The notes: generated from the letters alone by a model not told the origin. 64,000 bases of DNA from an uncultured Acidobacteriota bacterium (GCA_963725105.1 CAVRXZ010000023.1:63669-127668); one strand, 5' to 3'; counted from the first letter of the stretch, positions 8,434 to 55,238 are shown. Numbers and translations: made by a program.

Positions 8434-8483
8434 GCCGAGCCGCGAGGGCGGCGAAGGCACAGGCGCTGGTGGGGCCCCAGCGC
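8434..8483 (+). repeat. Structured dispersed element copy 1 (GAG/CGAA internal loop plus GTGGGG hairpin)
   Basis: GCC-GAG-CCGC-gagg-GCGG-CGAA-GGC then GCGCTG-GTGGGG-CCC-CAGCGC; similar copies at 14071 and 55174. Confidence 0.7.
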
Positions 8484-8495
8484 AACAAGGAGAAG

Positions 8496-9866
8496 ATGTT
8501 TAAGAAGATCCTGATTGCGAACCGTGGGGAAGTGGCGCTGCGCGTCATCTTCGCATGCCGTGAGCTGGGCATCAAGACCGTCGCTGTCTACTCGCAGGCC
8601 GATGAAAATTCGCTCCACGTGCGCTTCGCTGACGAAGACTTTTGCATCGGTCCGGCGCGGAGCGCCGACAGCTATCTGAACGTCCCGGCCATTATTACGA
8701 CCGCCGAAATCTTCGGCGCCGACGCTATTCATCCCGGATACGGCTTCCTGTCCGAGAGCGCGTACCTTGCGGAGGTGTGCGAAGCCTGCCACATCAAGTT
8801 CATCGGCCCGAGCCCGCAAGTGATCCGGTTGATGGGCGACAAAGCGCGCGCCAGGCGGGTCATGAAGAAGGTTGGCGTGCCCGTGCTCCCAGGGAGCGAC
8901 AGTCCCATCGAGCAGGAAGACAAGACTCTCAAGGTCGCCAAGGAGATCGGGTTTCCCGTCATCGTCAAGGCGACGGCGGGTGGCGGCGGGCGTGGCATGC
9001 GTGTGGTTCGTACGGCCGCCGAGCTTCCCCACGCGGTGCAGACCGCGCAGCGCGAAGCGGAGGCAGCGTTTGGCGTGGCGGACGTGTACATCGAAAAGTA
9101 CGTGGAATCGCCGCGGCACGTCGAATTCCAGGTGCTCGGGGATCATCACGGCAACGTGGTGCACCTCGGGGAGCGCGAATGTTCAATCCAGCGCCGGCAT
9201 CAGAAGCTGCTCGAGGAATCGCCGTCGCCCGCGCTCAGTGAGAAGATGCGCCGGAAGATGGGAAACATCGTGATCGATGCCGCGAGGGCCGTGCAGTACA
9301 CCAACGCCGGGACCTTCGAGTTCCTGATGGACGCCGACGGCCACTTCTACTTCATGGAGGCGAATACGCGCCTGCAGGTGGAGCACGCGGTCACCGAGAT
9401 GGTGACAGGCGTCGACATTGTCAAAGAGCAGATTCGGATTGCGGCGGGGGAGCGTCTTTCGTACAAGCAGAGCGAGATTACGTTTACTGGCCACTCGATC
9501 GAATGTCGGATCAACGCCGAAGACCCGGAGACCTTCGTGCCCTCGCCGGGAGTGATTCACGTGTTCAGTGCGCCCGGCGGCCCCGGGGTGCGAGTCGAGA
9601 CATACGCGCACTCGGATTGCGTAATCCCGCCCCACTACGACTCACTGATTGCGAAGATCATCGTGCACGGACGGGACCGGCAGGAAGCGATCGCGCGCAT
9701 GAAGCGCACGCTCGAAATGACCGTGATCGAAGGCATCAAGACGACGATCCCGCTCCATCTCCGGATCCTGAACGACCCCGATTTCCTCGCGGGAAAGGTC
9801 ACGACGTCGTTCATGGAGCGATTCCTCAGTCGCCCGGGTTCGGGGCGTCTCGCCGAAGCCGTTTGA
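8496..9866 (+). CDS. accC: Biotin carboxylase
   Basis: [58 protein letters not shown]. Confidence 0.97.
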
Positions 9867-9884
9867 GCACGTTCGTCCCGCGCC

Positions 9885-10550
9885 ATGACGACGAATCTCA
9901 GCCGGGAGGCGATGCGCCTTCATGCGATTATCGATGTCTCGGTTACGGTCGCCGCAGGCTGGACTCCCACTGATCTCGCCGCGGCTTGTCTGAGTGGCGG
10001 CGCGCGTCTGATTCAGGTCCGCGCCAAGACATCCTCCAGTTCGGCGTTCCTGGACCTGGCGTCGCGCATTCACGAACTCGCAAGCGGGGCTGGAGCGATC
10101 GTCATTGTCAACGACCGTGCGGACATCGCGAGGCTGTCCGGGGCGGAGGGCGTGCATCTCGGACAGGAGGATCTGACGCCGGCCGCGGCGCGTCGTGTAA
10201 TTGGACCCGAAGCGCTCGTGGGACTGTCAACGCACACAGACGAACAAGTAGAGCGGGCAGTCGTCGAATCCGTTTCGTACTTTGCGATCGGGCCGGTGTT
10301 CAAGACCTCCACGAAGCCGAGCGGGTACGCGACGGTGGGACTTGACGGCGTCCGCCGAGCGGCGGCTGCAGGGCGAGCGCGCGGCCTGAAACTGGTGGCC
10401 ATCGGCGGGATCACATTGGACAAAGTGGTTGACGTCGTGAACGCGGGCGCGGCGGGCGTTGCGGTGATCGCGGATCTGCTCGAAGGCGGCGATCCTGAGG
10501 CGCGCACACGCGCCTACCTGGCGCGGCTCGACGAGTCCGGCGGAGTATAA
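9885..10550 (+). CDS. thiE: Thiamine-phosphate synthase
   Basis: IQVRAK, IVNDRADIA, GVHLGQED, GLSTH, GPVFKTSTK, VAIGGIT. Confidence 0.92.
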   Translation: MTTNLSREAMRLHAIIDVSVTVAAGWTPTDLAAACLSGGARLIQVRAKTSSSSAFLDLASRIHELASGAGAIVIVNDRADIARLSGAEGVHLGQEDLTPAAARRVIGPEALVGLSTHTDEQVERAVVESVSYFAIGPVFKTSTKPSGYATVGLDGVRRAAAAGRARGLKLVAIGGITLDKVVDVVNAGAAGVAVIADLLEGGDPEARTRAYLARLDESGGV

Positions 10551-10569
10551 TCCGCGCGGAACGCCATCT

Positions 10570-12106
10570 ATGGCCAGTCACTGGTTCACAAAGAAGCCTT
10601 TGGATGTCCTGCTCCAGGAAATGGCAGGCGAGAACCGACTGCGCCGCGTGCTCGGTCCCGTCCAACTGACGTCACTGGGGGTCGGCGCGATCATCGGAAC
10701 CGGCATCTTCATCCTCACCGGGGTCGCGGCGCACGATCGGACCGGGCCCGCGCTGATGCTGTCGTTCGTGCTGGCCGGGCTGGCGTGCGTCTTTGCGGCG
10801 CTCTGTTACGCCGAGTTCGCCTCGATGGTTCCGGTTGCGGGCTCGGCGTACACGTACGCGTATGCCACGCTGGGTGAGCTGTTCGCCTGGATCATCGGGT
10901 GGGATCTGATTCTCGAATATGCGGTTGGGGCGGCGACGGTCGCGCACGGCTGGTCCGCACATTTTCAGGAGTTCACGCCGCTGTTCGGGTTCCACGTGCC
11001 CGAAGTCGATTCGCAGCGCTCCGCTGAACTATTGCCTGAGCGTGGGCGCGGGTTGTCCGACGACCGGCTTGGTGTCGAGCGGTTCATATTTCGACCTCCC
11101 GGCGGTCCTGATCACCTTCATCCTGACCGCCGTTCTCGTGAAAGGCATCCAGGAAAGCGCGACATTCAACGCGATCATGGTGGGAGTGAAACTCATCATC
11201 GTGTTGATGGTGATCGCCATCGGCGCGTTCTATGTCAACCCGGACAACTGGCACCCGTTTGCACCGTTCGGGTACACGGGCGTCAGCTTCTTCGGCCACA
11301 CCCTTTTCGGCCAGACCGCTGCCGGAGGCGAGCCGCTCGGCATGATCGCAGGCGCGGCGATCATTTTCTTTGCCTACATCGGCTTCGACTCCGTCTCCGT
11401 TCACTCGGAGGAGGCGCACAATCCGGCGCGTGATGTTCCGATTGGCATCATCGTCTCTCTGATCGTCTGTACGATTCTGTACATCGCCGTTGCCGCAGTG
11501 CTGACGGGGATGGTGCCCTCCCATGAGATCAACATCGATGCGCCGGTGGTGGATGCCTTCAAGCGCGCGGGGCTGACGTGGATGCAATATCTCGTGGCCG
11601 CCGGGGCGATGACCGGCATCACGTCAGTTCTGCTCGTGATGATGCTGAGCCAGCCCCGGGTGATGCTGGCGCTAGCGCGCGACGGCCTCGTGCCGACCGC
11701 GTTCTTCGGCGACATCCATCCGAAGTTCCGCACGCCGTGGAAATCCACGATTCTGACAGGTGTCTTCGTCGCGGCGATGGCGGGGTTGATTCCGTTGAGC
11801 ATCCTCGCGGAGATGACGAGCATAGGTACGCTCTTCGCGTTTGTGATCGTCTGCGGCGCGGTGATCGTGATGCGCCGGATCAACCCAGGCGCGAATCGAC
11901 CCTTCCGCGCGCCTTTCGTTCCGCTGGTGCCGATTCTCGGCGTCCTGACGTGCCTGGTGCTGATGTTCTCGTTGCCGGTTGAGAACTGGTATCGGCTGAT
12001 CATCTGGATGGCCATCGGGTTCGTTGTGTATTTCACCTACGGGCACAGGCACAGTCTGCTGCGACGGCGGGCTGGGGAGGCAGCGGCGCGGGCGATGCGT
12101 CCGTGA
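10570..12106 (+). CDS. APC-family (CAT/YhdG-like) amino acid permease (frameshift near 11005)
   Basis: LGVGAIIGTGIF, CYAEFASMVPVAGSAYTY, FFAYIGFD; two consecutive ORFs make one protein. Confidence 0.9.
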
Positions 12107-13096
12107 CCCGTACCGCCGCGTTCGCCGTCGTCCTGCTGGTCTCGGTGATCGTCGGCGGCACCCTCGGCTACATGACGATCGAGGGGTGGGGACTCTGGGA
12201 TTCGTTCTACATGACGGTCATCACCGTGACGACCGTCGGCTACAGGGAAGTCCACGACCTCAGCCGCTTCGGTCAGGCCTTCACGGTCATCCTGCTTCTG
12301 GGCGGGGTGGGCGCGGCGCTATATACGTTCACGCTTCTGGCCACGGTCGTCGTCGAAGGCGGCCTTCCCCGGCGGCTGCAGCGGAGACGGCAGACCCGTA
12401 TGCTCGAGTCGGTCAAGGATCACTTCATCATCTGCGGGTACGGTCGCATCGGGAGCACCGTGGCCCGGCAATTGGCCCGGCAGAACGTGCCGCTGGTCGT
12501 AATCGAGCGCGACCCTGAGCGCCTGCAGGCGGCGATCGAGGAAGGCCTGCTGGCCGTCGAAGCTGATGCCAGCCGCGAAGAAGTGCTGAAGCGCGTCGGT
12601 ATCGACGCGCGCGCGTGGCCTGATCGCCGCAGTGGGAACGGATGCGGAAAACGTCTACGCCGTGCTGACAGCCCGTGTCCTGCGGCCGGATCTCTTTATC
12701 GTTGGTCGCGCGGAGAGCGAGGACGCGACGATCAAGCTGAAGCGGGCAGGCGCCAACCGGGTGGTGTCGCCGTACCAGATCGGTGCGCTTCAGATTGCGC
12801 AGACTGCGCTGCGCCCGACGGTCGTCGATTTCGTGGAGCTGGCCACGAGCTCGGAGAACATGGACCTGGGAATGGAGGAGATAACGATCGCTCCCGGTTC
12901 AAAGCTCGCCGAGCAGACAGTGGTCGAAGCCAACCTGCGCCAGCGGTTTGGCATTATCGTCGTCGGTATCCAGCGGCGCGACAGCCGCATGGAATTCAAC
13001 CCTGAACCGAGTCTGGCGATTCGGGCAGGCGATACGCTCGTGGTGCTCGGCAGGCCAGCGTCGCTCAAGCAGCTCGAGGCGGAGGCAGGAGTCTAG
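12103..13096 (+). CDS. Potassium channel with TrkA-N/TrkA-C (RCK) domains (frameshift near 12610)
   Basis: TVTTVGY filter, IICGYGRIG Rossmann motif, C-terminal TrkA_C segment. Confidence 0.88.
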
Positions 13097-14032
13097 ATGG
13101 GTGCGAAGGTTCTCGACGGTACGGCCGTAGCGAATCAGATCCGGGCAGAGCTTCGGCCGGCCGTGGAGGTATTCACGGCCCGTGCCGGCCGGCCGCCGTG
13201 TCTTGGCATTGTGCTCGTCGGGGACGATCCCGCCTCGCACATCTACGTCGGGGCGAAGCTGAAATCGGCCGCCGAAACCGGCCTGCGAGCGGAGCGTGAA
13301 CTGCTTCCGGCGACGGCCTCGCTGGCGGAACTGCTCGCGGTCGTTGATCGACTCAACAGGAGCGACGGCATCGACGGCATCCTCGTGCAGTCGCCGCTGC
13401 CGGCTGCGATGGGCGAAGATGCCGAGCGGCAGGTTTTCGACGTGATTCGGCCGGAAAAGGACGTGGACGGCTTCCATCCCGTCAATGTCGGTAAGCTCGT
13501 TCAGAACCGGGCGACGTTTGCCGCGTGCACGCCGTCCGGCGTGATCGAGCTGCTGCAGCGTTCAGGCGTTGGCATCGCCGGGGCGCGGGCAGCGGTCGTC
13601 GGACGGAGTGACATTGTCGGCAAGCCGATGGCGCTCCTGCTCCTGCATCAACATGCAACGGTCACGATTTGTCATTCGCGGACGCCGAACCTGGCGAAGG
13701 TGACGTCGGAGGCGGATATCGTAGTCTCGGCGATAGGGCGTCCCGGATTCCTGACGGCCGAATTCGTCAAGCCGGGCGCCGCGGTCGTGGATGTTGGAAC
13801 GACACAGGTCACCGATCGGGCGGTGGTCGAACGTCTGTTCGCGGCCGGCTCCAAACGCCGCGAGGCCTTCGAGAAGCGTGGATCCCTGGTCGTCGGCGAT
13901 GTGCACCCAGAAGTGGCCGACGTGGCGGGCGCACTTTCACCCGTTCCGGGTGGTGTCGGGCCGCTGACGATTGCGATGCTCCTGAAGAATACGCTTCGCG
14001 CCGCGGAGGAACGAATCTCACAGGGCAGGTAG
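13097..14032 (+). CDS. folD: Methylenetetrahydrofolate dehydrogenase/cyclohydrolase
   Basis: EKDVDGFHP, CTPSG, GRSDIVGKP, PVPGGVGPLT. Confidence 0.96.
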   Translation: MGAKVLDGTAVANQIRAELRPAVEVFTARAGRPPCLGIVLVGDDPASHIYVGAKLKSAAETGLRAERELLPATASLAELLAVVDRLNRSDGIDGILVQSPLPAAMGEDAERQVFDVIRPEKDVDGFHPVNVGKLVQNRATFAACTPSGVIELLQRSGVGIAGARAAVVGRSDIVGKPMALLLLHQHATVTICHSRTPNLAKVTSEADIVVSAIGRPGFLTAEFVKPGAAVVDVGTTQVTDRAVVERLFAAGSKRREAFEKRGSLVVGDVHPEVADVAGALSPVPGGVGPLTIAMLLKNTLRAAEERISQGR

Positions 14033-14051
14033 GGCGGGTGGGGCAGGTGGG
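14022..14051. repeat. G-rich 9-mer array overlapping the folD stop
   Basis: AGGGCAGGTAGGGCGGGTGGGGCAGGTGGG; one mismatch to 49856..49885. Confidence 0.85.
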
Positions 14052-14070
14052 AGCGCCCGCGGCCATGCCA

Positions 14071-14130
14071 GCACGCGAGCCGCTAGGCGAAGCGTGCGAC
14101 GGCATCAGCGAGCGGGGGTGGGGCCCCGCG
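14071..14130 (+). repeat. Structured dispersed element copy 2
   Basis: GCACGC-GAG-CC-gcta-GG-CGAA-GCGTGC then GCGGGG-GTGGGG-CCCCGC. Confidence 0.75.
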
Positions 14131-14150
14131 AGAAAGAAAGAGATGCCGTG

Positions 14151-14751
14151 ATGCTAAGGGTGGCCCTGACCGGGGGGCATTGCGACCGGGAAAAGCTACG
14201 TCCTCGATCAGTTCCGTCGTCGCGGCATTCCGTGTCTCGATGCGGACACCCTGGCGCGCGGCGTGACCGCGCCGGGCACCGAAGCGGCGGCCGCGATCGC
14301 CGCTCGATTTGGTCCGGACGCGATGGACGCTGACGGCGCCATCAATCGCAAAGCCCTGGGCGCGATTGTCTTTCGCGACACGGCAGAGCGTCGGGCTCTC
14401 GAAGCGATCGTCCATCCTGCCGTCTATCGGGCCATTCTCGCTGGGTTGCGGGCATTCGAACTGACCGAGGACCCGCCGCTTGCCGTTGTGGACGTTCCGT
14501 TGCTGTACGAGACAGGCCACGAGGGGGAGTTTGCGCGCGTGATCGTGACCATCTGTTCGGCCGAGCGGCAGATCGAACGACTCGTGCAGCGCGGGCTCTC
14601 GCGAGAGGAAGCCAGACGACGGATCGAGGCACAGATGCCAACCGAGGACAAGGCATCGCGCGCGGACTTCGTCATCCGCACCGACGGGAGCTTCGGAGAT
14701 ACCGACCGGCAGGTCGAGGAGATATTGCGAAAATTCAAAACTCAGAATTAG
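14151..14751 (+). CDS. coaE: Dephospho-CoA kinase (extra G in run at about 14172-14177)
   Basis: MLRVALTGG/IATGKS P-loop, DAD, LEAIVHPAV, VDVPLLYE. Confidence 0.92.
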
Positions 14752-14811
14752 GAACTCAAAAGGACTCTAACTCATTGGCGTTTGCGAGGTCAGAGCCTTC
14801 TGAGTCCTAGT
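14732..14811. repeat. 7-mer array with inverted partner between convergent coaE and lapB
   Basis: AATTCAA AACTCAG AATTAGG AACTCAA ... TTCTGAGTCCTAGT; AGGACTC/GAGTCCT inverted pair. Confidence 0.6.
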
Positions 14812-14816
14812 CAGTT

Positions 14817-16040
14817 TCAGACTTCGACCTCTGCCGTGTCCTGCGCGGGGGCGATGCGCTCCTCGACGAACGTGTTCCAATCGTGGCAGTGCGGGCACTG
14901 CCAGAGGAGCTCGGTGCTCCGATAACGACAGCGCATGCAGACGTGCGGGTCCAGATAGAACACGGCGTGCTGAGTCAGCTCGCCGTACCGGTCGACGAGA
15001 GCCGGCTCGTGTCGGAGCTGACCCAGAGCGCGCCAGATGGCCTGGTGAATCCCGAGGGCGTGCGGATTCTGCACGAGAGCTGCGAAGAGCAGATCGAGCG
15101 CCTCCCGCGGGCGACCACTGGCCGCAAGATGACGCGAGAACGCCAGCCGGGCCCGCCAGTCCTGGGGGTTTTCGTCGATCAGCCGGCGACAGAGCCGTGT
15201 GAAGCGCTCCGGTGATCCGATCCGGCGGGCCATGGCTTCGAGTCGATCGAAGGCCAGGTACGCGCGGTCGGGCGCGATATCGACCAGGCGCTCCCAGATC
15301 TCGGCGGCATCCCCATCCTTGCCTTGCAGCACGCGCACGTCGCCAAGATTCAGGTACGCGGGAATCGCGCGCGCGTCGAGGTCGATCGCCGCCTCGAAGC
15401 GCCTGATGGCCTCGAAGTAGTCCCTTCGCCGGACCGCCTCCTGCCCGATCTCGTTCTCGAGAAAAGCCAGAATGGCCTGATTCTGCGGCCGCGAGCCGAT
15501 GTCAGCCAGCTTCAGGAGCCGCTGGCGTGTGTCGTAGGCATCGGACCACTGATGCTGCTCCTCCTGCAGCTTCTGAAGATTGAGCAGGGCGTACTCGTTC
15601 TTGGCGTCGAGCTGCAGGACCTCGTTGAAGGCCTCGGTGGCCCGATCGACAAAGCCTCCCTTTCTGTAGTCGAGCCCGAGGCACAAGAGCACGTAAGCAT
15701 GCTCCAGGCGATTCAGCCGCGGCCGCTGCAACAACGACTGGTGCACGGTGATGGCCTTGCCGACCTGTCCCTTCTCGCGATACAGATTCCCGAGGATCAT
15801 GTGGACCTCGAGTGTGTCCGCATTGAGCTCGGCGGCCCTGGTCAGTTCGTCGATCGCGAGATCAATCTGGTTGGAAACAAGGAAGTTCAGGCCCAGGAGG
15901 TAGTGCGGAGACTCGCGGGCCCTGCGACGGTCGAACAACTTCCCATCACGAAGCTTGTACCGTTCCCACGCCTTTCCGACGGCAAGGCCGCAGAGCAGCG
16001 CGACAAGCGCAGACAGGAACGCTGCGTATTGATTCGTCAT
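14817..16040 (-). CDS. lapB: LPS assembly protein B (YciM/LapB-like TPR plus rubredoxin)
   Basis: N-terminal TM, TPRs (LGNLYREKGQVGKAITVHQSLL), C-terminal CMRC..WQCPHCHDWNT. Confidence 0.9.
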   Translation of the reverse strand: MTNQYAAFLSALVALLCGLAVGKAWERYKLRDGKLFDRRRARESPHYLLGLNFLVSNQIDLAIDELTRAAELNADTLEVHMILGNLYREKGQVGKAITVHQSLLQRPRLNRLEHAYVLLCLGLDYRKGGFVDRATEAFNEVLQLDAKNEYALLNLQKLQEEQHQWSDAYDTRQRLLKLADIGSRPQNQAILAFLENEIGQEAVRRRDYFEAIRRFEAAIDLDARAIPAYLNLGDVRVLQGKDGDAAEIWERLVDIAPDRAYLAFDRLEAMARRIGSPERFTRLCRRLIDENPQDWRARLAFSRHLAASGRPREALDLLFAALVQNPHALGIHQAIWRALGQLRHEPALVDRYGELTQHAVFYLDPHVCMRCRYRSTELLWQCPHCHDWNTFVEERIAPAQDTAEVEV

Positions 16041-16043
16041 CGG

Positions 16044-16604
16044 TCAGGTATTTCGACCTTTGGGCCGTCCGGCCGATCGCGGCAAGTAGCCTGTGAGCAG
16101 CGCGGTCCAGCGCCCTTGCGCCTTCAGGATGACCTCAACCAGCTCACGAGCAGCACCCTGGCCGCCCTTGGCGCGGCACACGTAATCGACTCGGGCGCGG
16201 ACCTCCCGGACTGCGTCGGCTGGGCAGGCCGAAAACCCGACGCGTTCAACTAGGGGCAGATCCAGCAAATCATCACCCAGATACGCGACGTCTGCGTCTG
16301 CCAGCCCCTGCTGCCGGCAAATCTCATCGTATCCCTGAAGCTTGCTCGAGTCGCCCTGGCGGACGAGCGGGATTCCCAGCTGTTTCGCTCGATGCGTGGT
16401 GGAGGCCGATGTGCGGGCCGAGAGAATGCCGACGCCCAGCCCTGCGCGTTGCGCCCAGACCAGGCCGGTCCCATCGCGAATGTCGAACTGCTTGCTTTCA
16501 CTCCCGTCCGAATGGATCAGGACTTTGCCGTCGGTGAGGACGCCGTCGACATCCAGCAACAGAAGCTTGATCCGTGAAGCCTTCTTGAACAGGGGCACGG
16601 TCAC
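16044..16604 (-). CDS. kdsC: KDO 8-phosphate phosphatase
   Basis: LLLLDVDGVLTDG, FDIRDG, YLGDDLLDLP, GGQGAARE. Confidence 0.94.
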   Translation of the reverse strand: MTVPLFKKASRIKLLLLDVDGVLTDGKVLIHSDGSESKQFDIRDGTGLVWAQRAGLGVGILSARTSASTTHRAKQLGIPLVRQGDSSKLQGYDEICRQQGLADADVAYLGDDLLDLPLVERVGFSACPADAVREVRARVDYVCRAKGGQGAARELVEVILKAQGRWTALLTGYLPRSAGRPKGRNT

Positions 16605-16618
16605 CGTTCGCGGTCAGA

Positions 16619-17572
16619 TCATCCGCGCTTCCACAGATCGTGCAGGTGAACCACACCGGCAACCTGTTTCGCTCCTCCGCCTACGACGACGACGGACGTG
16701 ATCTTGCGCTGCTCCATGATGTTCAGGGCTTCCGCAGCCAGGGTATCGGGCGGAATGACAACAGGTTCCCGCGTCATGATGTCGGCGGCCGTCAGTTCGA
16801 GAAGCCCCGATCGATTCAGGTGCCTTCTCAAGTCGCCATCCGTAATGACACCGACAAGCTGCGCGCTGGCGTCAACCACGCAGGTCATGCCGAGGGTTTT
16901 GCTCGTCATTTCGATGATGACGTCGCGGACCCGGGTATTCGCCTGGACAACGGGACAGCGCGAACCGGAGCGCATGACCGTGTCAGCACGAACAAAGGGC
17001 TTTCCGAGCTCACCCCCTTGGTGCAGGACGACAAAATCCTCCTGACGAAATCCTTTTTCAACGTGCAATGTCATCGCAAGGGCGTCCCCGATTGCCAATG
17101 CCGCAGTCGTGCTCGCGGTGGGCGCCAGGTTCAGTGGGCAGGCCTCCGCGGTAACACTGCAATCGAGTGCAACATCGGCGGCGTGGGCGAGCGTCGATTC
17201 CGGTGCGCCGGTGATCGCGATCAGCTTTGTGCCCAGCCGTTTGATTGCCCCCAGCAACTGAAGGATCTCGTGAGTTTCCCCACTGTAGGAGAGAGCCATG
17301 ACGAGGTCGTCGCGCTGGACAACGCCAAGGTCGCCGTGAATCGCCTCGGTTGGATGGAGAAAGTGCGCCGGGGTTCCCGTACTCGCCAGTGTGGCGGCGA
17401 TCTTCTGACAGATGATGCCCGACTTCCCGATGCCAGTCAGGATGACGCGTCCCCGACAATTGCGAAGCAGTTCCACGGCATGCTCGAACTTCCCGTCGAG
17501 CCGGTCGACGAGAGCGAGTATCGCCGCAGCCTCGGTTTCGAGCACCTTACGAGCCAGCGCGAGATCAGCCAT
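16619..17572 (-). CDS. kdsD: Arabinose-5-phosphate isomerase (KpsF/GutQ)
   Basis: GIGKSG, HPTEAIHGDLG, APTASTT, CBS pair. Confidence 0.94.
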   Translation of the reverse strand: MADLALARKVLETEAAAILALVDRLDGKFEHAVELLRNCRGRVILTGIGKSGIICQKIAATLASTGTPAHFLHPTEAIHGDLGVVQRDDLVMALSYSGETHEILQLLGAIKRLGTKLIAITGAPESTLAHAADVALDCSVTAEACPLNLAPTASTTAALAIGDALAMTLHVEKGFRQEDFVVLHQGGELGKPFVRADTVMRSGSRCPVVQANTRVRDVIIEMTSKTLGMTCVVDASAQLVGVITDGDLRRHLNRSGLLELTAADIMTREPVVIPPDTLAAEALNIMEQRKITSVVVVGGGAKQVAGVVHLHDLWKRG

Positions 17573-18399: not shown

Positions 18400-18400
18400 A

Positions 18401-20053
<1,653 letters not shown>

Positions 20054-44271: not shown

Positions 44272-44322
44272 GGGCAGGTAGGTCTGGTAGGGCAGGTAGG
44301 GCGGGCAAGGCAGGGCGGGTAG
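44272..44322. repeat. G-rich 9-mer array
   Basis: GGGCAGGTA GGTCTGGTA GGGCAGGTA GGGCGGGCA AGGCAGGGC. Confidence 0.85.
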
Positions 44323-44337
44323 CTGAGAGACACGACT

Positions 44338-45075: not shown

Positions 45076-45095
45076 ATGATTACGTTGAGAGAGAT

Positions 45096-45911: not shown

Positions 45912-45920
45912 GAGGGGCGT

Positions 45921-46997: not shown

Positions 46998-47001
46998 CGT
47001 T

Positions 47002-49857
47002 ATGGCTGAAAAGAAGGGTGTCGGTCACGCCTACAACATCGACTTCCTGAACGTCGTCTTTGCGGCGTCGAGTCTGTTCCTGTTTCTGTCGGTCGTCTGG
47101 ATGGTCTGGGACGATTTCGACCGCGACTGGAAGAATACACAGCGACGCTTCGCACAGCTTCAGTATCAGGTGACGCAGGCGCAGTACCGGCAGGCGTCCC
47201 AGGCTGTCGATCGAGGGAAGCTGCAGCAGCTCCAGGGGCAGCTCGCCTCGTCACAAAAGGCGGCGGTTGCGAACCAGCAGAAGATCGACGAGGTGCAGGC
47301 GAAACTCGACGACGTCAATATTCGGCTGTACCGGGCAACGCAGGCCTACCAGTTCGCCAAGGCCACCTACGACCACGACCGGTACGATTTCGAGTCGGCC
47401 CGTGCGAACGGCCTGGGCAATCTGGCAAAGAAGGAACAGGCGGTTCAGGCGGAAGCGAAGACGCTTAGCGAGCTCAACCTGCAGATGGAGGCGAGGACCG
47501 CGGAGCGGGCGGCGGTGCAGAAGGAGCTGGGCCAGTACACCGGCCAGATCGGCTCGCTCGGTAAGCAGATCGAGGACATGCACGCCGAGCAGCTGCGTAT
47601 CCAGAAGCTGCTGGACGTGCAGGCACCAAGCCTGACGAAGGACTATTTCCGGAACGCGCCGCTACTGGACTTCATGGCGCCCACGCTCAAGGTTCAGCAG
47701 ATCATCCTGCCGAACGTCATGGACGACGTGAATTTCATTCGCGTGCCGAAGATGGATCGGTGCCAGACCTGTCACCTGGCCATCGAAAAGAAGGGGTTCG
47801 AAAAATATCCGCAGCCATTCACGACCCACCCCAATCTGTCGGCCTATATCGGCAGCGACTCGCCTCACCCGATCGATCGGGTCGGCTGTACCGTCTGCCA
47901 TGAGGGCATGGGCCAGTCGGTCAGCTTCCGGGACGCGGCCCACACACCGACCGGCGAGAAGCAGAAGGAAGAGTGGGAGAAGAAATACCACTGGGAAGAA
48001 CCCCACCTCTGGGACTACCCGATGCTGCCCGCGAAGTTGACGGAAGCTTCCTGCGCAAAGTGTCACAAGCAGCAGGTCTATGTTCCGAAGGCGGACAACC
48101 TGAACGTGGCGTATGCAACGTACGAGCGGGCCGGATGCTACGCGTGCCACAAGACCCGAGGCTTCGAAGATGTTCGGAAACCCGGCCCGATCCTGACCAA
48201 GATCGATTCGAAGTTGACGCCGGATTGGGTAAAGACCTGGATTCGGAACCCGCGTGCGGTCAAGGGCACAACCTGGATGCCGCGTATCTGGTACAACTCG
48301 AACTCCAGCGCCACCCAGGATGCGGTGCGAAACGAAATCGAAATCAACGCGGCGGTCGCGTACCTCTTCGCCAACACCGAGAAATACGAGTTCCCCGTCA
48401 AGAATCCACCGCGCGGCGATTCGAAAAGCGGGGAGAAGATTGTGAAGTCGATCGGCTGTCAGGGCTGTCACGTGGTCGGGGAGGGCGCGCGAACAGAGGT
48501 CGGGCCGCATAGAACGTTCGGTCAGCCGCTCGAGAACATCGGCAACAAGACGACCTACGAATGGGTCTTCAACTGGGTCCGTGACCCGAAGCACTACAAC
48601 CCGGCGACCTACATGCCCAACCTGCGTCTGACGGATCAGCAGGCGGCGGACGTTGCGGCCTATCTGATGACGCTGAAGCAGACCTCGGAGGGGGATGCTG
48701 CGAAAGCAACGTTCACGGACAAGGACGTCGACGCGGTGCTGCTCGACTACTACAAAGCGGCCATGCCGGTGGAAGACGCAAAGGCTCAGGTTGCCAAGCT
48801 CGACGCCAAAGCCAAGGAAGTAGCCCTCGGGCAGCGCGTCATCAGCCGGTACGGCTGCTTCGGCTGCCACGACATCAAAGGATTCGAGAAGGCGCAGTCG
48901 ATCGGCACGGATTTGTCTGAAGAAGGCAGCAAGCTCGTCACCCGGCTCGACTTTGCGTTCATCACTGAGGTGCCGCACACGTCCAAGATCGGCTGGTTCC
49001 GCACGAAGCTCCACGACCCGCGGATCTTCGACAAGGGTCGCGTGCTGGAGCCACTCGACAAGCTGCGCATGCCGAACTTCGACTTCACCGACGTCGAGGT
49101 TGAGCGCCTCGTGACTGCAATCATGAGTTTCCAGCGCGAGATTCAGCCGGTGGCGGCCTGGGCGCCGCGCTCGGCAAGGGCGGATGCCGTTGGCCTCGGC
49201 CGGACGCTCGTGCATCGCAGGAACTGTGTGGGCTGTCACATCATCGAGGGTGATGGCGGTGACTTCCTCAAACTGGTCGCGGATCCTTCGCTCGGTCCGC
49301 CGATGCTCACGCCGGAAGGGGCGCGTGTGCAGCCAGACTGGCTGTACGCGTTCCTGCGCGGTCCCATCACGATTCGACCCTGGCTCGACGTCCGCATGCC
49401 GACGTTCGGGCTCGACGATCCGAATTTGAACGGCGTGATCAGGTACTTTGGGGCCGTATCGAATACGGTCGGTCCCTTCCAGACGCACGAAATCGTTCGA
49501 GCATCGACCGCTGATGCTTCGGGCAAGCAGTTGTTCGAGACGTTGAAGTGCCAGCAGTGTCACGTGCTGGGAGCGGTCCCGAAGGATCAGCCGACGGCCA
49601 ACCTTGCACCGGATCTTCGAATGGCGTCGGACCGGCTGCAGCCGGAATGGATCCTTCAGTGGCTGAAGAAGCCGTCCGAGATTCTGCCGGGTACCCGGAT
49701 GCCTGCGTTCTGGCCGGATTACCCGAAGTCCTTCTATCCGGCATTCAACGCCGATGCGGAGGCGCAGATTCGGGCGATTCGGGATCATCTGCTGACGTTC
49801 AAGGGGGGGCCGACACCGCGGCGCAGCGCGTCGGCGGCCGCTGTCAGCGCCAATTAG
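47002..49857 (+). CDS. Membrane-anchored multiheme cytochrome c (8 CxxCH)
   Basis: TM, long coiled coil, then CQTCH CTVCH CAKCH CYACH CQGCH CFGCH CVGCH CQQCH. Confidence 0.92.
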   Translation: MAEKKGVGHAYNIDFLNVVFAASSLFLFLSVVWMVWDDFDRDWKNTQRRFAQLQYQVTQAQYRQASQAVDRGKLQQLQGQLASSQKAAVANQQKIDEVQAKLDDVNIRLYRATQAYQFAKATYDHDRYDFESARANGLGNLAKKEQAVQAEAKTLSELNLQMEARTAERAAVQKELGQYTGQIGSLGKQIEDMHAEQLRIQKLLDVQAPSLTKDYFRNAPLLDFMAPTLKVQQIILPNVMDDVNFIRVPKMDRCQTCHLAIEKKGFEKYPQPFTTHPNLSAYIGSDSPHPIDRVGCTVCHEGMGQSVSFRDAAHTPTGEKQKEEWEKKYHWEEPHLWDYPMLPAKLTEASCAKCHKQQVYVPKADNLNVAYATYERAGCYACHKTRGFEDVRKPGPILTKIDSKLTPDWVKTWIRNPRAVKGTTWMPRIWYNSNSSATQDAVRNEIEINAAVAYLFANTEKYEFPVKNPPRGDSKSGEKIVKSIGCQGCHVVGEGARTEVGPHRTFGQPLENIGNKTTYEWVFNWVRDPKHYNPATYMPNLRLTDQQAADVAAYLMTLKQTSEGDAAKATFTDKDVDAVLLDYYKAAMPVEDAKAQVAKLDAKAKEVALGQRVISRYGCFGCHDIKGFEKAQSIGTDLSEEGSKLVTRLDFAFITEVPHTSKIGWFRTKLHDPRIFDKGRVLEPLDKLRMPNFDFTDVEVERLVTAIMSFQREIQPVAAWAPRSARADAVGLGRTLVHRRNCVGCHIIEGDGGDFLKLVADPSLGPPMLTPEGARVQPDWLYAFLRGPITIRPWLDVRMPTFGLDDPNLNGVIRYFGAVSNTVGPFQTHEIVRASTADASGKQLFETLKCQQCHVLGAVPKDQPTANLAPDLRMASDRLQPEWILQWLKKPSEILPGTRMPAFWPDYPKSFYPAFNADAEAQIRAIRDHLLTFKGGPTPRRSASAAAVSAN

Positions 49858-49951
49858 GGCAGGTCGGGCGGGTGGGGCAGGTGGGGTGATCGGCCCGGCG
49901 CCCTACCCGGCGCCTACCAGGCCCACCCGCCCTTCCTGCCTCACCTGCCCC
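49856..49951. repeat. Inverted pair of 9-mer arrays (GGGCAGGTN / NACCTGCCC)
   Basis: G-rich arm at 49856-49886; C-rich arm CCTACCAGG CCCACCCGC CCTTCCTGC CTCACCTGC CCC. Confidence 0.88.
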
Positions 49952-49963
49952 CTATAATCTCAA

Positions 49964-50482
49964 ATGCTCCGTCCGTATCGCGGCGTGCTTCCGCGCGTCC
50001 ATCCAACCGCCTTTATCGATGACAGCGCCCAGATCATTGGCGATGTCGAAATCGGAGAAGAGAGCAGTGTCTGGATGTCCGTCGTCATGCGTGGCGACGT
50101 CCATAGCATTCGTATGGGTCGCCGTTCCAACGTGCAGGACGGGACCATCGTGCACGTGATGAACCGGACGCATCCGACAACGATTGGCGATAACGTGACC
50201 GTCGGACATCGGGCGCTGCTGCACGGATGCACCATCGAGGATCGGTGCCTGATCGGGATGGGCGCGATCATCCTGAATGGCGCCCACATCGGGTTGGGCT
50301 CGATCGTCGCAGCGGGATCGCTCGTGCTCGAAGAGATGAAGGTGCCTGGCCGCTCGCTTGTCATGGGAAGCCCGGCCAAGGTAAAGCGCCTGCTGACCGA
50401 TGCCGAGGTGGAGGATATCCAGGCGTACGCCGATCGGTACGTGGGTTACCGCCTGGACTACATGGGCGGGACAGGCAGGTAG
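49964..50482 (+). CDS. Gamma carbonic anhydrase family protein (YrdA-like)
   Basis: IIGDVEIG, RGDV, NVQD, VGH..LHGC hexapeptide repeats. Confidence 0.93.
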   Translation: MLRPYRGVLPRVHPTAFIDDSAQIIGDVEIGEESSVWMSVVMRGDVHSIRMGRRSNVQDGTIVHVMNRTHPTTIGDNVTVGHRALLHGCTIEDRCLIGMGAIILNGAHIGLGSIVAAGSLVLEEMKVPGRSLVMGSPAKVKRLLTDAEVEDIQAYADRYVGYRLDYMGGTGR

Positions 50483-50508
50483 GGCCGGTGAGGCGGGAAG
50501 GGTAAGGA
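50464..50508. repeat. G-rich 9-mer array overlapping the stop codon
   Basis: GGGCGGGAC AGGCAGGTA GGGCCGGTG AGGCGGGAA GGG. Confidence 0.7.
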
Positions 50509-50509
50509 A

Positions 50510-51839
50510 TTGTCAACGAAGCCACCGGGAGGCACGCGAGACTTCTTGCCGGCCGACATCCGCCGCCGGGAGCACGTCATTGGTGTCGTCCGCGAGGTGT
50601 ACGAGAGCTACGGCTTCGAGCCACTCGAGACGCCGGCGTTCGAGAACATCGAGACGCTGCTGGGCAAGTACGGCGACGAAGGCAACAAGCTGATCTTCAA
50701 GATTCTGCGGCGCGGCGAGCACGAGGGCAGGGGGGAGGCCGATCTGGCCCTCCGGTACGACCTGACTGTTCCGCTGGCGCGCGTAGTTGCGCAGTATCAG
50801 CACGAGCTGCCGCGCTTTTTCAAGCGATACCAGATACAACCGGTCTGGCGTGCGGACCGTCCGGCGCGCGGGCGGTTCCGCGAGTTCTATCAGTGCGATA
50901 TCGACGCCATTGGCACGACGTCGCTCACGGTGGAGGTTGAGCTGCTGACGGCGGTGAACGAAGTGCTGGAGCGGCTCGGATTCAACGATTTCGTCATACG
51001 TCTCAATCATCGTCAGCTGCTCGCCAGCCTTCTTCGAGCTTCCGGGATTCCCGCTGCGCTCCATGACGATGCGCTCGTGGCGATCGACAAGCTGGACAGG
51101 ATCGGGCGGACCGGAGTGCAGGCAGAGCTCATCGCCCGGAACGTGGGAAGCGAGGCCGCGTCAGCGTGTCTCGAGATGTTTCAGGCGGAGTTTCCGACGG
51201 ACGTGCAGCGATGTCTCGGCGGCGATGAGCAGGGTCTTCAGGCTCTCGAGCAGCTGCAGGCGCTTCTCGGAGTTGGCAGGGAGCGGCACAGCCAGCCGGA
51301 TACGCGTCGACCCAAGTCTCGCGCGCGGCTTGTCGTATTACACGGGAACGATCATGGAGATTGCGGTACCCGACCTGGCGGGCAGTCTCGGCGGCGGCGG
51401 CCGTTACGACCATCTCATCGGGATGTTTCTGGGCCGCGACGTGCCGGCCTGTGGGTTTTCGCTCGGTCTCGAGCGCATCATCGTTGTCATGAACGAGCGC
51501 GGCATGTTTCCTGCGAGCGTGGTCGATGGCGGCGTGGACGTGATGGTGACCGTCTGGAGCCAGGAAACGTCCGGTGAGTCGCTTGCGCTTGCATCCGATC
51601 TGCGCCGCAGCGGGCTCCGCGTCGATGTCTATCCTGAACCGGATAAGCTCGGGAAGCAGTTCAAATACGCCTCATCGCGTCAGGTCCCATTCGTCGCAAT
51701 TCTTGGCGACGATGAGCGTGCGCGCAGTGAAGTGTCGATCAAGGACCTGCGAAGCGGTGATCAGACCACGATGACCAACGCCGAGGCAGGGCGCTTCATC
51801 CTGTCGCGGCTCGGACCGAGTCCCTCAGCGGAACCCTGA
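50510..51839 (+). CDS. hisS: Histidine--tRNA ligase (frameshift near 51270)
   Basis: GTRDFLP, LRYDLTVP, RADRPARGRFREFYQCD, LARGLSYYTG, GGGRYD, GLERI. Confidence 0.95.
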
Positions 51840-51870
51840 ACCTTGAACGATTGAACCTGGAACCTGAATC
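51831..51870. repeat. 7-mer array (GAACCYT-like) overlapping the hisS stop
   Basis: GAACCCT GAACCTT GAACGATT GAACCTG GAACCT GAATC. Confidence 0.75.
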
Positions 51871-51876
51871 ATCGAC

Positions 51877-53644
51877 ATGCCTGAGCCTCTTGGCGATTTG
51901 ACCCGGACGCATACCTGCGGCGACCTTCGGCCGGCCGATGTCGGTGGCAGCGCGACACTGCTTGGCTGGGTTCACCGGATCCGCGACCTGGGCGGCGTGA
52001 CGTTTCTTGACATCCGCGACCGAAGCGGCATTTCGCAGGTCGTCGTGCGTGATGATGAGGCCTTGTCGGCGGTCGCGAAGCGGCTGCGGGCCGAATACGT
52101 CGTAGCCATCGAGGGCGCGGTGCAGCGACGGGCCGACGAGACCGTCAACCCCAAGCTGCCGACGGGGCAGGTGGAGGTGCTGGCGCGCCGGATCCATGTG
52201 TTGAATGAGGCCAAAACGCCGCCATTTCCAATCGCGGACGAATCCCACGTCTCAGAAGAGATGCGACTACGTGCGCGGTATCTCGATCTCCGCCGGACGC
52301 GAATGCAACACAACGTGGGACTTCGCCATCGTGTCACGATGGCGGTACGGAACTATCTCGACTCGCAGGGCTTCTGGGAGATCGAGACGCCAATGCTCAC
52401 CAAATCGACCCCGGAAGGTGCCCGCGACTATCTGGTGCCGAGTCGGGTGCATCCGGGTGAGTTCTACGCGCTGCCGCAGTCACCGCAGACTCTTCAAGCA
52501 GATTCTGATGATTGCCGGCATGGATCGGTACTTTCAGATCGCGAGATGCTTCCGCGACGAGGATCTGCGCGCAGATCGCCAGCCGGAATTTACGCAGATC
52601 GACATCGAGATGTCGTTTGCGCGGCCCGAGACCATCATCAACCTGATCGAATCGCTTCTGGGGCGGGTGTTCCGCGAAATTGGCGTCGACGTGTCGGTTC
52701 CGTTCCGTCGCATCCCGTACAAGGACGCGATCGCGCGGTACGGCTCTGATAAACCGGATCTGCGCTGCGCTCTGGAAATCCAGGATCTGTCAGAGGTGTT
52801 TCGCCAGTCGGTCTTCCGCGTCTTCAGTCAGATCATTGCGCAAGGTGGCGCGGTCCGGGGCTTCTGCGTGCCCGGCGGCAATCGGTTCACGCGGAGCCAG
52901 CTCGACGCGCTGGTCGATCGCGCCAAGGAGATGGGCTTCAGCGGCCTGATCTGGGTCAGGCCGGGCGAGCCGCCGAGTAGCGCGGTGAAGGCGCTCGAGG
53001 AGGGCGCGCTGCGACAGGCGCTCGCCAGTGTGGGTGCGACGGCGGATGATCTGCTGCTGCTGGCGGCAGGCCCCGGAGGCGCGACGTCCATCCTGCTTGG
53101 CCAGCTTCGCCTGGACATCGCGAGGCGGGAGAACCTGATACGAACCGACGCCTGGGAGTTTGCGTGGGTCGTGGAGTTTCCACTGGTAGAGTGGCACGCA
53201 GAGGACGCCAGGTGGTACTCCGTCAATCATCCGTTCACGGCGCCCATGGACGAGGATCTCGTCTGGCTCGATACCGAACCCGGTCGTGTGCGGGCGAAAG
53301 CATATGACGTCGTGCTGAATGGGTGGGAGGTTGGCGGGGGCAGCATCCGAATCCATGACATGGCGCTGCAGCACAAGGTCTTTACGAAGGTGCTGGGCAT
53401 TGCGGAGGAGGACGCGCGTCATCGATTCGGGTTCTTCATGGACGCGTTGGAATATGGGACGCCGCCTCACGGTGGCATCGCGCTCGGGCTCGACCGTCTC
53501 ATTGCGCTTCTGGCCGGCGAATCCTCTATCCGGGACGTGATGGCCTTCCCGAAGACCGCCGCCGCTGAGGATCTGATGGCAGGGGCCCCGTCAACTGTCG
53601 ACATCAAGCAGGTCAGGGAGCTGCACCTCAAGGTTCAGCCGTAG
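51877..53644 (+). CDS. aspS: Aspartate--tRNA ligase (frameshift near 52490)
   Basis: RTHTCG, TPEGARDY, LPQSPQ/LFKQ, CFRDEDLRADRQPEFTQ, PPHGGIALGLDR. Confidence 0.96.
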
Positions 53645-53687
53645 GGGCAGCTTTGTAGCACAATAAGATAGACATGATTAAGCCTTG

Positions 53688-54678
53688 ATGAAGCGCATCA
53701 ACGTCCCGCAAGCGGGGATCGAAACCCTGTTTGGCGCGTACGACGAGAATCTCAAACACCTCGAATCGCTGTTCAACGTTCGGATCCGAACGCACGGTCA
53801 TGAGCTCCTGGTCGATGGCGACTCCCCGGACCTGGAGAGGGTCGATCGTGTTGTCGGGCAGCTCTCGTCGCTGATGCAGGCTGGCTACAAGCTGTCGAAC
53901 TCGGACGTGCGGACGGCGTCGGATCTGTTCGCGCAGGACGAGTCTGTCGACTTGCATGACCACTTTCTCAAGGGGAGCCTGACGTCCGCCGGACGCCGCC
54001 GGGTGGCCCCCAAGACCGTGACGCAACGCCGGTACCTGGAGGCGATCGAGCAGCACGACATCGTTTTCGGAATCGGCCCCGCCGGGACGGGAAAGACCTA
54101 TCTGGCGATGGCACAGGCGGTGGCGTTCCTGACCGCCAAGAAGGTGAGCCGAATCATTCTGGCGCGCCCGGCCGTCGAAGCAGGCGAGAAACTCGGGTTT
54201 CTGCCGGGGGACCTGCAGGAGAAGGTGAATCCCTACCTGCGACCGCTTTACGACGCCCTGTACGACATGCTGGACGTGGACCGAGTGGCCCGGTATCTCG
54301 AGCGTGGCACGATTGAGATTGCCCCTATCGCGTTCATGCGGGGCCTGTACGCTCAACGATTCGTTCGTCATTCTCGATGAGGCCCAGAACACCACGTCCG
54401 AGCAGATGAAAATGTTCCTGACGCGGCTTGGCTTTGGCGCAAAAGCGGTGATCACCGGAGACATCACCCAGATCGACCTGCCGTTCGGCCGCACGTCGGG
54501 GCTGGTCGAGGCGATGAAAGTCGTTGGCAACGTCGAGGGCATTGCCTTTGTGCGCTTCGACGAGCGCGACGTGGTTCGCCACAAGCTTGTCCAGCATATC
54601 GTGAAGGCGTACGAGGAGTACTCCAACGGAGCCCGCGACAGCCGGCCCACGGCGAGCGCTGGGCGCGACTCTTCGTAA
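53688..54678 (+). CDS. phoH: PhoH-family ATPase (frameshift near 54345)
   Basis: [44 protein letters not shown]. Confidence 0.94.
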
Positions 54679-54683
54679 GAACC

Positions 54684-55238
54684 ATGTCTCCTGATGGGCA
54701 ACGAACCGCGCTTGAGTCCACGAGGTTGCGTGTGCTGGTGGGCGACGAGGACGGACGCCCGACCGGATTGGGGCTCGCCCGATGGCTGGTCCGCGTCGCG
54801 CCGGTTCGCGCGCGCGGCACGGTCAGTGTTGCGCTGGTCAGCGATACCAGAATCCGACGGTTGAACCGCCGTTACCGGGGCCGAGACTCGGCGACCGACG
54901 TGTTGAGCTTCCCCGGCGATGGGAACGCGGTGCGCGGCGCGTGGCTGGGAGATATCGTCATCGCCGTCGGCGTGGCCGGCCGCCACGCCCGCGAGGCCGG
55001 GCACACGCGGGAGACCGAGCTCCGCGTTCTGGCTTTGCACGGACTGTTGCACCTCCTTGGGTACGATCATGCTCATCCGCGTGACGGAGGGCGGATGCTC
55101 CGCGTGGAGAGAAGACTGCGCCGGAAGGGTGGCCTCCGCGAAGGCCTCATCGAGCGCGCGTGCGGTTCTGGCTACGCCGAGGGCGTCGGCCCGAAGGCGT
55201 CGGGCGCGGGGGTGGGGCCCCGCGCAACTAGGAAATGA
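54684..55238 (+). CDS. ybeY: rRNA maturation endoribonuclease YbeY with repeat-derived C-terminal extension
   Basis: LNRRYRG..ATDVLSF, LGDIVI, HGLLHLLGYDH. Confidence 0.92.
   Translation: MSPDGQRTALESTRLRVLVGDEDGRPTGLGLARWLVRVAPVRARGTVSVALVSDTRIRRLNRRYRGRDSATDVLSFPGDGNAVRGAWLGDIVIAVGVAGRHAREAGHTRETELRVLALHGLLHLLGYDHAHPRDGGRMLRVERRLRRKGGLREGLIERACGSGYAEGVGPKASGAGVGPRATRK
55174..55225 (+). repeat. Structured dispersed element copy 3 (inside the ybeY 3' end)
   Basis: ACGCC-GAG-GGC-gtcg-GCC-CGAA-GGCGT then GCGCGGGG-GTGGGG-CCCCGCGC. Confidence 0.78.

Follow-up and report, generated by a model that had tools for sequence, protein, structure and literature searches.

What is the structured element that stands in three copies directly before the start codons of accC, coaE and an HlyC/CorC gene (corC) in 64,000 nucleotides (nt) of DNA from an uncultured Acidobacteriota bacterium (GCA_963725105.1 CAVRXZ010000023.1:63669-127668; this whole stretch is called the window)? 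The best explanation is a dispersed mosaic hairpin repeat of the order Vicinamibacterales, found only in sense direction between co-directional genes and likely to be a small non-autonomous mobile element; we put the probability of this reading at about 0.7. That the copies form a dispersed, insertion-polymorphic repeat family is very likely. The initial annotation had proposed either an undescribed cis-regulatory RNA or an element resembling repetitive extragenic palindromes (REPs) or miniature inverted-repeat transposable elements (MITEs). The second proposal is borne out by 63-71 copies beside unrelated genes, presence or absence at orthologous junctions, in-frame inserts and a patchy distribution.

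From three copies in the window to a genome-wide family

The three copies (c1, c2 and c3, in window order) share one architecture: a helix P1, a GAG/CGAA internal loop and a helix P2 closed by a four-base loop make up stem-loop 1, and 4-11 nt further on follows a GC-rich hairpin 2, whose stem varies around the invariant centre GGTGGGGCCCC. P1 differs in sequence between the copies (GCC/GGC in c1, GCACGC/GCGTGC in c2, ACGCC/GGCGT in c3). Behind hairpin 2 comes a purine-rich tail, and the start codon lies 12 nt (accC), 18 nt (coaE) or 9 nt (corC) on. According to Pfam, c1 lies between accB (7888-8367) and accC, c2 between folD (13097-14032) and coaE, and c3 after ybeY and before the CBS/CorC (HlyC/CorC) gene. 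From shuffled sequence, 0.02 occurrences of the core GGTGGGGCCCC would be expected in the window; there are 3, a count that none of 100 shuffles reached. This confirms three sense copies with covarying stems, a GTGGGG-loop hairpin and a purine tract, each with its start codon 9-18 nt downstream of the hairpin. Their features are as follows.

8370..8402, plus strand: companion array of G-rich 9-mers (GGCCAGGTAGGGCAGGTGGGCCAGGTAGGGTGG), outside the hairpin model; begins directly after the accB stop TAA (8365-8367)
8409..8433, plus strand: 5' module of c1, sub-family F4 (TAAGCGGACAGTCGTCGCACGAAAG), placed by alignments and by F4 copies in relatives
8434..8458, plus strand: stem-loop 1 of c1; P1 GCC 8434-8436 / GGC 8456-8458, internal loop GAG 8437-8439 and CGAA 8452-8455, P2 CCGC/GCGG, loop GAGG
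8463..8483, plus strand: hairpin 2 of c1, GCGCTGG/CCAGCGC with a 7-nt loop, 3 G fewer than the canonical GGGGGTGGGG
8484..8498, plus strand: purine tail of c1, AACAAGGAGAAG (8484-8495), then the accC ATG (8496-8498)
14023..14051, plus strand: array of G-rich 9-mers, whose first GGTAGGG unit supplies the folD stop TAG (14030-14032)
14052..14106, plus strand: 5' part of c2, sub-family F5, a GAGCGCCCGCGGCC module and then the outer stem
14065-14069 and 14101-14105, plus strand: outer stem of c2, ATGCC / GGCAT, surrounding stem-loop 1
14071-14076 and 14092-14097, plus strand: P1 of c2, GCACGC / GCGTGC, enclosing the rest of stem-loop 1 (GAG/CGAA, P2 CC/GG, loop GCTA)
14109..14132, plus strand: hairpin 2 of c2, CGAG-CGGGG / CCCCG-CGAG with tandem G.A/A.G, loop GTGGGG
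14133..14153, plus strand: purine tail of c2, with an out-of-frame ATG at 14143, then the coaE ATG (14151-14153; start codon read by eye, gene by its Pfam CoaE match)
55160..55173, plus strand: 5' module of c3, sub-family F3 (GTGCGGTTCTGGCT), within the ybeY reading frame
55174..55200, plus strand: stem-loop 1 of c3; P1 ACGCC 55174-55178 / GGCGT 55196-55200, GAG/CGAA, P2 GGC/GCC, loop GTCG
55204..55225, plus strand: hairpin 2 of c3, GCGCGGGG / CCCCGCGC, loop GTGGGG
55226..55238, plus strand: tail of c3, AACTAGGAA, then ATGA; the corC ATG at 55235 overlaps the TGA that ends the extended ybeY open reading frame (ORF; 54684-55238)

An element of three copies describes the window correctly and the genome incorrectly. 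In the host genome (G000; 42 contigs, 4.4 Mb, 63.6% G+C, 74% complete by marker genes, order Vicinamibacterales) the exact core GGTGGGGCCCC occurs 47 times, each time within the same context of hairpin and purine tail. A covariance model of hairpin and tail (R1) matched 63 sites at E<=1e-3 and 71 at E<=0.1, the copies beyond the exact cores carrying shortened or altered loops. All copies have hairpin and tail in common; their 5' modules form a mosaic. Sorted by ad hoc signatures, the 63 copies divide into F1 (14), F2 (14), F4 (9), F3 (6), F5 (5) and others (15), with c1 in F4, c2 in F5 and c3 in F3, that is, in three sub-families. The GAG/CGAA stem-loop, taken by the initial annotation as common to the element, is indeed shared by c1-c3 and was found by a strict search in 11 of the 47 exact-core copies, about a quarter. 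A covariance model of the two-hairpin form (R2) found 14 copies in the genome, and c2 scored weakly against the two-hairpin model built from other types (37.5 bits against 60-84). Median pairwise identities within sub-families were 0.71-0.84, with a maximum of 0.94, and the sense strand of the copies consists of 44% G, 29% C, 17% A and 10% T. Within F4 the tail up to ..AGTAA is kept across genomes. The F4 5' module (GG..TTGCA) recalls a sigma-54 promoter and was rejected as such by eye, the GG-to-GC spacing being one to two bases short.

In a few composite copies a second module sits within the hairpin loop. Two of them (G000:C30:86733-86830 and G000:C31:58721-58911, loci L040 and L043) carry, between the arms of another hairpin, an insert of ~50 nt that opens with CAGCCTTGAGC and includes a hairpin and tail of its own. 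Loop inserts of another kind (..GCGGAGGC GGGGGCCCC) were seen at C12:196281, C24:100448 and C3:95263. Hairpin loops may be preferred entry points for inserts.

Contigs of soil metagenomes matched the repeat loci in small shares only. Because the element is repeated and these contigs are merely at least 88% alike, their variants serve as hints: a GGG inserted at 8467 in hairpin 2 of c1, paired G and C insertions at 14080 and 14086 that would lengthen P2 of c2, and, in one contig, 140 other letters in place of the folD-coaE spacer.

Polarity at gene junctions and turnover between relatives

The coding strand of the flanks was judged by a codon log-odds score trained on long ORFs of the host genome. 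The upstream flank was coded on the strand of the element for 53 of the 63 copies, on the opposite strand for 4, and was unclear for 6. Where both flanks were clear, 37 copies lay in sense and 0 in antisense at co-directional junctions, and 3 more lay between convergent and 3 between divergent genes. Among 24 loci of relatives, 15 were sense/sense and 2 antisense. An in-frame start codon was found from -1 to 42 nt (median, 12) past the hairpin in 33 of the 63 copies. The stop codon of the upstream gene lies most often 52-56 nt ahead of the hairpin, where the element has its 5' edge; the element typically spans from this stop, at it or just after it, to a few bases before the next start. The bias in strand and position noted in the window is therefore strong genome-wide.

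A further stop codon begins 2-4 nt past the hairpin in 44 of the 63 copies (+2 in 11, +3 in 23, +4 in 10). In the 55 copies whose first stop lies at most 14 nt past the hairpin, TAA (18), TAG (18) and TGA (19) are about equally used. The frame of this stop relative to the hairpin varies, and the open stretch upstream of it measures 8 to 148 codons. As the tail stop falls at +2, +3 or +4, no single reading frame is conserved through the hairpin.

A strong GC hairpin after a co-directional upstream gene in 53 of 63 cases, with 3-4 copies between convergent genes, would also fit transcription terminators or attenuators behind the upstream genes. This is very improbable: a U-run past the hairpin is lacking on either strand, the tail being rich in purines and T making up 10% of the copies; copies stand within tightly coupled operons (S10-spc, accBC), where termination would be harmful; and some lie inside ORFs.

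Copies inside genes were found in ybeY and dnaE2. At the end of ybeY, c3 lies in frame and adds 24 codons (LIER-[24 aa]-RK*, against LIERERKR* in the relative G001). A dnaE2 locus downstream of an imuB-like ORF (L186; G000:C7:33000-40000, minus strand, ~1620-5258) carries four copies, all on the strand of the gene, and G-rich array sequence also occurs inside its variable linkers. Aligning the intact DnaE2 of G008 to this locus showed that the copies at 2583-2638 and 2058-2113 fall in linkers differing from species to species, where the alignment runs on unbroken and in frame; the two others (3479-3531 and 2383-2437) coincide with frame changes. One more frame change has no copy, and the gene is read in three frames. 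In the dnaE2 gene of G019 two F2 copies, one sense and one antisense, are arranged as an inverted pair, accompanied by further antisense pieces, which indicates that antisense copies can exist where they are translated or tolerated.

A frame anomaly was also seen in coaE of the window, where 14151-14262 appears frameshifted in a run of six G (14172-14177). The frame of the ATG at 14151 gives MLRVALTGG, and the expected P-loop (GGIATGKS) appears only when one G of the run is removed; Pfam recognises CoaE from profile position 38 onwards, within an ORF opening at 14263. The shift is either a homopolymer error of the assembly or a real pseudogene. Given its place in a G-run, some of the frame changes in dnaE2 and coaE may be assembly errors.

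The family is patchily distributed. R1 matched 20 of 41 sampled genomes, including the host (13 of 24 of the same family and 6 of 16 from other families of the order), the number per genome ranging from 0 to 80. In an even sample of the phylum, scored at E<=1e-6 and with stricter filters, it matched 3 of 151 genomes, all Vicinamibacterales; none of these 151 genomes outside that order had a match. Rfam 15 gave no match in the window at gathering thresholds and, for ten copies at E<=10, chance-level hits only (E ~4 to 7). No description of the family was found in the literature on Acidobacteria/Vicinamibacter repeats or intercistronic elements, subscription journals not covered. The suggestion that the element is undescribed agrees with the lack of an Rfam match.

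Orthologous junctions differ even within the genus. Between accB and accC, G019 has no element and no spacer (a TAGTG overlap), G005 a plain 30-nt spacer with GGAGG, the same-genus G001 the hairpin and tail only, and G013 an array, an F5 module and the hairpin, hence a sub-family other than that of c1. In G002, also of the genus, five 60-nt tandem repeats of another kind are followed by another hairpin. In detail, this spacer (L063 1100-1500) consists of five 60-nt units with GCAGTAGCCGGCGGTAGTAGCGG and a hairpin of their own (GTGGGG..TCCCCAC), then a CCGGGGG..CCCCCGG hairpin and AGTAAAAATG, a different repeat family at the same junction. The hairpin stands just upstream of accC in 3 of 80 related loci, one of which (L130) has the F4 module of the host with compensated stems; the 5' module thus varies between copies at one and the same junction. 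At ybeY|corC, G001 and G013 have overlapping stop and start codons (ATGA and GTGA, respectively) and no element. The empty site of G001 already contains the tail-like AACGTAAGAGATGA, so that the tail may be target or remnant rather than cargo. The proposal that the element brings its own ribosome-binding site accordingly keeps the conserved F4 tail on its side and has the tail of the empty ybeY|corC site against it.

Five sense copies lie in the S10-spc ribosomal-protein operon of the host, at L4|L23, L23|L2, L5|S14, L6|L18 and S5-L30|L15. At L6|L18, stop and start overlap in G001 (TAATG), and G002 has a spacer of 23 nt; at L23|L2, G001 has a spacer of 20 nt. In the same operon a single ORF (L187 7894-8655, on G000:C17) holds the S5 domains and the first half of the L30 domain and directly precedes the hairpin copy at 8618-8673; it is an rpsE-rpmD fusion or a frame error.

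These distributions bear on the other proposal of the initial annotation, a gene-specific cis-regulatory RNA (riboswitch, leader or protein-binding operator) of accC, coaE and corC. The covarying stems, the fixed position just 5' of start codons and the sense orientation of all copies would suit such a regulator, which, having no Rfam match, would be new. It is nevertheless largely refuted and retains hardly any probability, as the 63-71 copies adjoin unrelated genes (ribosomal proteins, accC, coaE, corC) or lie inside dnaE2, only 3 of 80 accC loci carry the hairpin, sites are empty in relatives of the same genus, the 5' module changes at a single junction and some copies are translated within genes.

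Structure, polarity and the case for mobility

RNAfold returned the described fold for c1, c2 and c3. In the 47 exact-core copies, 80.9% of the cells of the hairpin are paired, against 71.4% in shuffles, and none of 500 shuffles matched the observed value. Pair 13-28 varies (CG in 20, UA in 18, UG in 5), and a tandem G.A/A.G replaces two pairs in 27 of the 47. For 11 copies of the two-hairpin form, 90.4% of the cells are paired, compared with 32-49% when partners are slid. An alignment of 41 copies drawn from 7 genomes shows pairing of 99% in P2, three of whose three pairs changed on both sides, and of 94.8% in the hairpin, against 25-54% in slid controls. The covariation claimed from three copies thus holds in alignments of 47, 11 and 41, with the caveats that the copies are paralogues and that one of the alignments (A8) was made to fit the model. 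Compensatory changes occur in REP-type DNA hairpins too, and covariation alone therefore does not establish an RNA function. Since the tandem G.A found in most hairpins would become a C.U/U.C mismatch on the opposite strand, it would favour folding of the G-rich strand. A kink-turn reading of the GAG/CGAA loop was rejected on paper, its strands being 3 and 4 nt long rather than 5 and 2.

Compensatory changes of the REP kind would equally suit an element acting purely as DNA, be it a binding or recombination site or a REP-like single-stranded hairpin for a nuclease, whose orientation would be set by the direction of replication and not of transcription. The octamer GGGGCCCC is a perfect DNA palindrome with 47 of its 80 occurrences in the host genome inside the repeat and 33 outside, and the inverted pair in the dnaE2 gene of G019 is in keeping with such an element. 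We regard it as highly improbable, since a polarity of 37 to 0 far exceeds the usual co-orientation of genes with replication, the fixed spacing to the start codon and the stop 2-4 nt past the hairpin point to mRNA, and no link to RAYT was found.

At the level of RNA, the repeat might define a post-transcriptional regulon, in which the hairpin would dock one trans-acting RNA-binding protein or RNase across many operons. The factor would coordinate processing, stability or translation, and the repeat would have spread because of the control that it confers. Consistent with this are a core and loop kept across genera beyond the needs of pairing (GGTGGGGCCCC recurs in 19 other genomes, its invariance in the 47 copies being due to how they were selected), the strict polarity, the tandem G.A on the sense strand only (27 of 47 hairpins) and the five copies in the ribosomal-protein operon. 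By contrast, presence at junctions differs even among members of the genus, loops are shortened in degenerate copies, the repeat is absent from 11 of 24 genomes of the same family, and no candidate partner was identified; taken together, a regulon appears improbable. A specific RNA role of whatever kind is possible, and in our judgement somewhat doubtful.

The reading preferred here is that of an undescribed, probably mobile repeat of the REP/BIME/RPE kind, tolerated only in sense direction in operon mRNAs. The element is likely to be mobile now or to have been so formerly, and would spread, or once have spread, as a small non-autonomous mobile element. As part of an operon mRNA, it would form a stable GC hairpin immediately before the next gene's ribosome-binding purine tract and start codon. 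Its polarity could then result from selection at the RNA level, with antisense copies purged and sense copies harmless, or useful as spacers in tight operons. Only sense copies would survive because only the sense transcript keeps the stop, a hairpin that spares the purine tract, and the start. The hairpin may act as an intercistronic stabiliser or as an insulator of the downstream ribosome-binding site. An oriented insertion mechanism or a trans-acting partner are possible alternatives to this account by selection.

Several results weigh against mobility, against selection as the source of polarity, or against a fold in RNA. Y1_Tnp/RAYT (PF01797) was not found in the host genome, which is 74% complete; across the 41 genomes it is unrelated to the repeat (9 of the 16 genomes carrying four or more copies have it, as do 15 of the 25 carrying two or fewer), and the hairpin lay near (within ~1.5 kb) none of the six best Y1_Tnp loci. 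The RAYT/HUH transposase that the initial annotation had proposed to look for was thus not found as a partner, and the repeat may therefore point to an unknown mobilising enzyme. The element has no terminal inverted repeats, its 5' modules and 3' tail not being mutual inverts, and its sole inverted repeat is the 7-10 bp hairpin. No target-site duplication was evident in four comparisons of filled and empty sites between genomes just 70-80% identical. No long element bounded by hairpin arms was found in the host genome, only three short composite copies. Nor does that genome hold identical copies (the maximum identity being 0.94), so that no recent burst is seen. No antisense copy was found in harmless places of the host genome, though random insertion followed by selection should leave some; their lack might instead stem from a mechanism that inserts in one orientation or from a genuine function of the sense strand. 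Folding energies of c1-c3 are no better than those of shuffles on either strand (z = -0.5, -1.4 and -0.3), so that the evidence for structure is covariation, not energy. The counts of G.U and A.C point to neither strand as the one that folds (11 and 4 in the hairpin, 8 and 31 in the wider model). Matches of the repeat loci to sequencing runs were to soil-metagenome DNA contigs only, and none was to RNA.

A bolder version, which we consider unlikely, takes the repeat for a self-spreading intercistronic cassette: an RNA-structured spacer with a stop codon at one end and a purine tract and ATG at the other. Such a cassette would enter at TAATG, ATGA and TAGTG overlaps of essential operons, those of ribosomal proteins and accBC among them, uncouple the two genes and re-supply termination, an insulated ribosome-binding site and a start codon. 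If so, the one-way polarity would be a function and not mere tolerance, and the cassette would be a hairpin-based counterpart of the MIRUs discussed below, perhaps recruited by the host to tune translational coupling and mRNA stability.

Significance, companion arrays and comparison with known repeats

What sets the family apart is its complete polarity and its siting at junctions where stop and start overlap in relatives, including those of essential, tightly coupled operons. To our knowledge, no REP-type family described so far combines a polarity this complete with sites in operons whose genes are most tightly coupled. Vicinamibacterales are abundant and rarely cultured soil bacteria whose non-coding DNA is essentially uncharted. 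A repeat this frequent skews gene calls, as ORFs run through it, ybeY is extended and dnaE2 decorated. Its covarying stems and its location at 5' ends also make it look like a regulatory RNA to motif searches, and its recognition prevents false riboswitch calls. The family also offers a natural test of how structured spacers affect translational coupling and mRNA decay.

Arrays of G-rich 9-mers (GGGCAGGTA type) precede many F1, F4 and F5 copies, at a distance of at most 100 nt in 19 of the 63. In the window such arrays (GGGCAGGTA/GGGCGGGTG type) were seen at 8370-8402, 14023-14051, 44272-44325 and 49857-49886, the last with a C-rich inverted counterpart at ~49895-49950. A pattern search found 59 arrays of at least 3 units in the host genome. 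They fill many spacers, beginning directly after stop codons, and their polarity at co-directional junctions (20 sense, 8 antisense) is weaker than that of the hairpin. The arrays have the look of G-quadruplex formers. They alone resemble the G-quadruplex-forming, G-rich heptamer repeats of Xanthomonas and Nostoc in the portion of Rehm et al. 2015 (PMC4692102) used here, from which they differ in being 9-mers and in being often joined to the hairpin repeat. The tetranucleotide CTAG is about ten-fold under-represented in the host genome (1369 observed, ~14,700 expected from base composition); it lay within ~120 nt of only 11 of the 63 copies, at no fixed place, and so does not suit this family as an insertion target. 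The scarcity of CTAG and the rarity of GGGGCCCC outside the repeat (33 sites) may reflect restriction-modification pressure.

Among known repeats, Rickettsia palindromic elements (RPEs) are palindromic repeats able to sit in frame in the ORFs of apparently functional genes. The family resembles them in its in-frame inserts with the ORF left open (24 codons in ybeY, two of the four copies in dnaE2). It differs from them in that most copies are intergenic, in taxon and sequence, which are unrelated, and in its strict polarity relative to transcription. RPEs are mentioned in Di Nocera et al. 2013 (PMC3733652), in the part of that paper drawn on here and below.

That part treats REPs and BIMEs with GTAG or CGTC tags. 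Like these, the family consists of short, GC-rich, imperfect palindromes in high copy number with mosaic modules, located mostly after coding regions and between unidirectional genes, with ends that can supply stop codons. According to the same text, REPs prefer spacers of the unidirectional and convergent type, can provide a TAG stop with their ends, and also occur inside DnaE2 genes, as in the dnaE2 gene with four copies here. The imperfect palindromes of 20-40 bp in many extragenic copies that mark REPs have their equivalent in a hairpin of 21-25 nt present in 63-71 copies. Unlike tagged REPs, the family has no GTAG/CGTC tag; the hairpin is flanked by GCGAG/CGAG or has fully paired stems, and GTAG occurs only in the separate 9-mer arrays. 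Unlike the inverted pairs of BIMEs and REPINs, copies of the host genome are single or tandem and in one direction, one inverted pair being seen in G019. A fixed purine tail and start codon after the hairpin, and the lack of an association with RAYT, are further differences from REPs and BIMEs.

Bacterial MITEs (ERIC, Correia/NEMIS, RUP), as summarised in that portion of the paper (PMC3733652), share with the family a length of ~70-130 nt, the lack of coding capacity, presumed co-transcription with neighbours, stable folds and a presence that varies between relatives. The family departs from them in having one orientation only and no terminal inverted repeats of 15-30 bp; a target-site duplication was not evident in the four comparisons of filled and empty sites.

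Finally, mycobacterial interspersed repetitive units (MIRUs) are short, apparently mobile repeats between operon genes, which insert at start codons and keep downstream translation through a -4 nt ATGA overlap, according to the part of PMC12548453 used here. Here too copies stand between operon genes in the direction of translation. The ATGA overlap recurs at the end of c3, and at the sites found empty stop and start codons overlap (TAATG, TAGTG, ATGA, GTGA). A conserved internal ORF of the MIRU type is unsupported, given the variable tail stop (+2, +3 or +4) and open stretches of 8 to 148 codons. Unlike MIRUs, which work through such an internal ORF (PMC12548453, same part), the family described here has no conserved frame, and the feature that it conserves is the hairpin.

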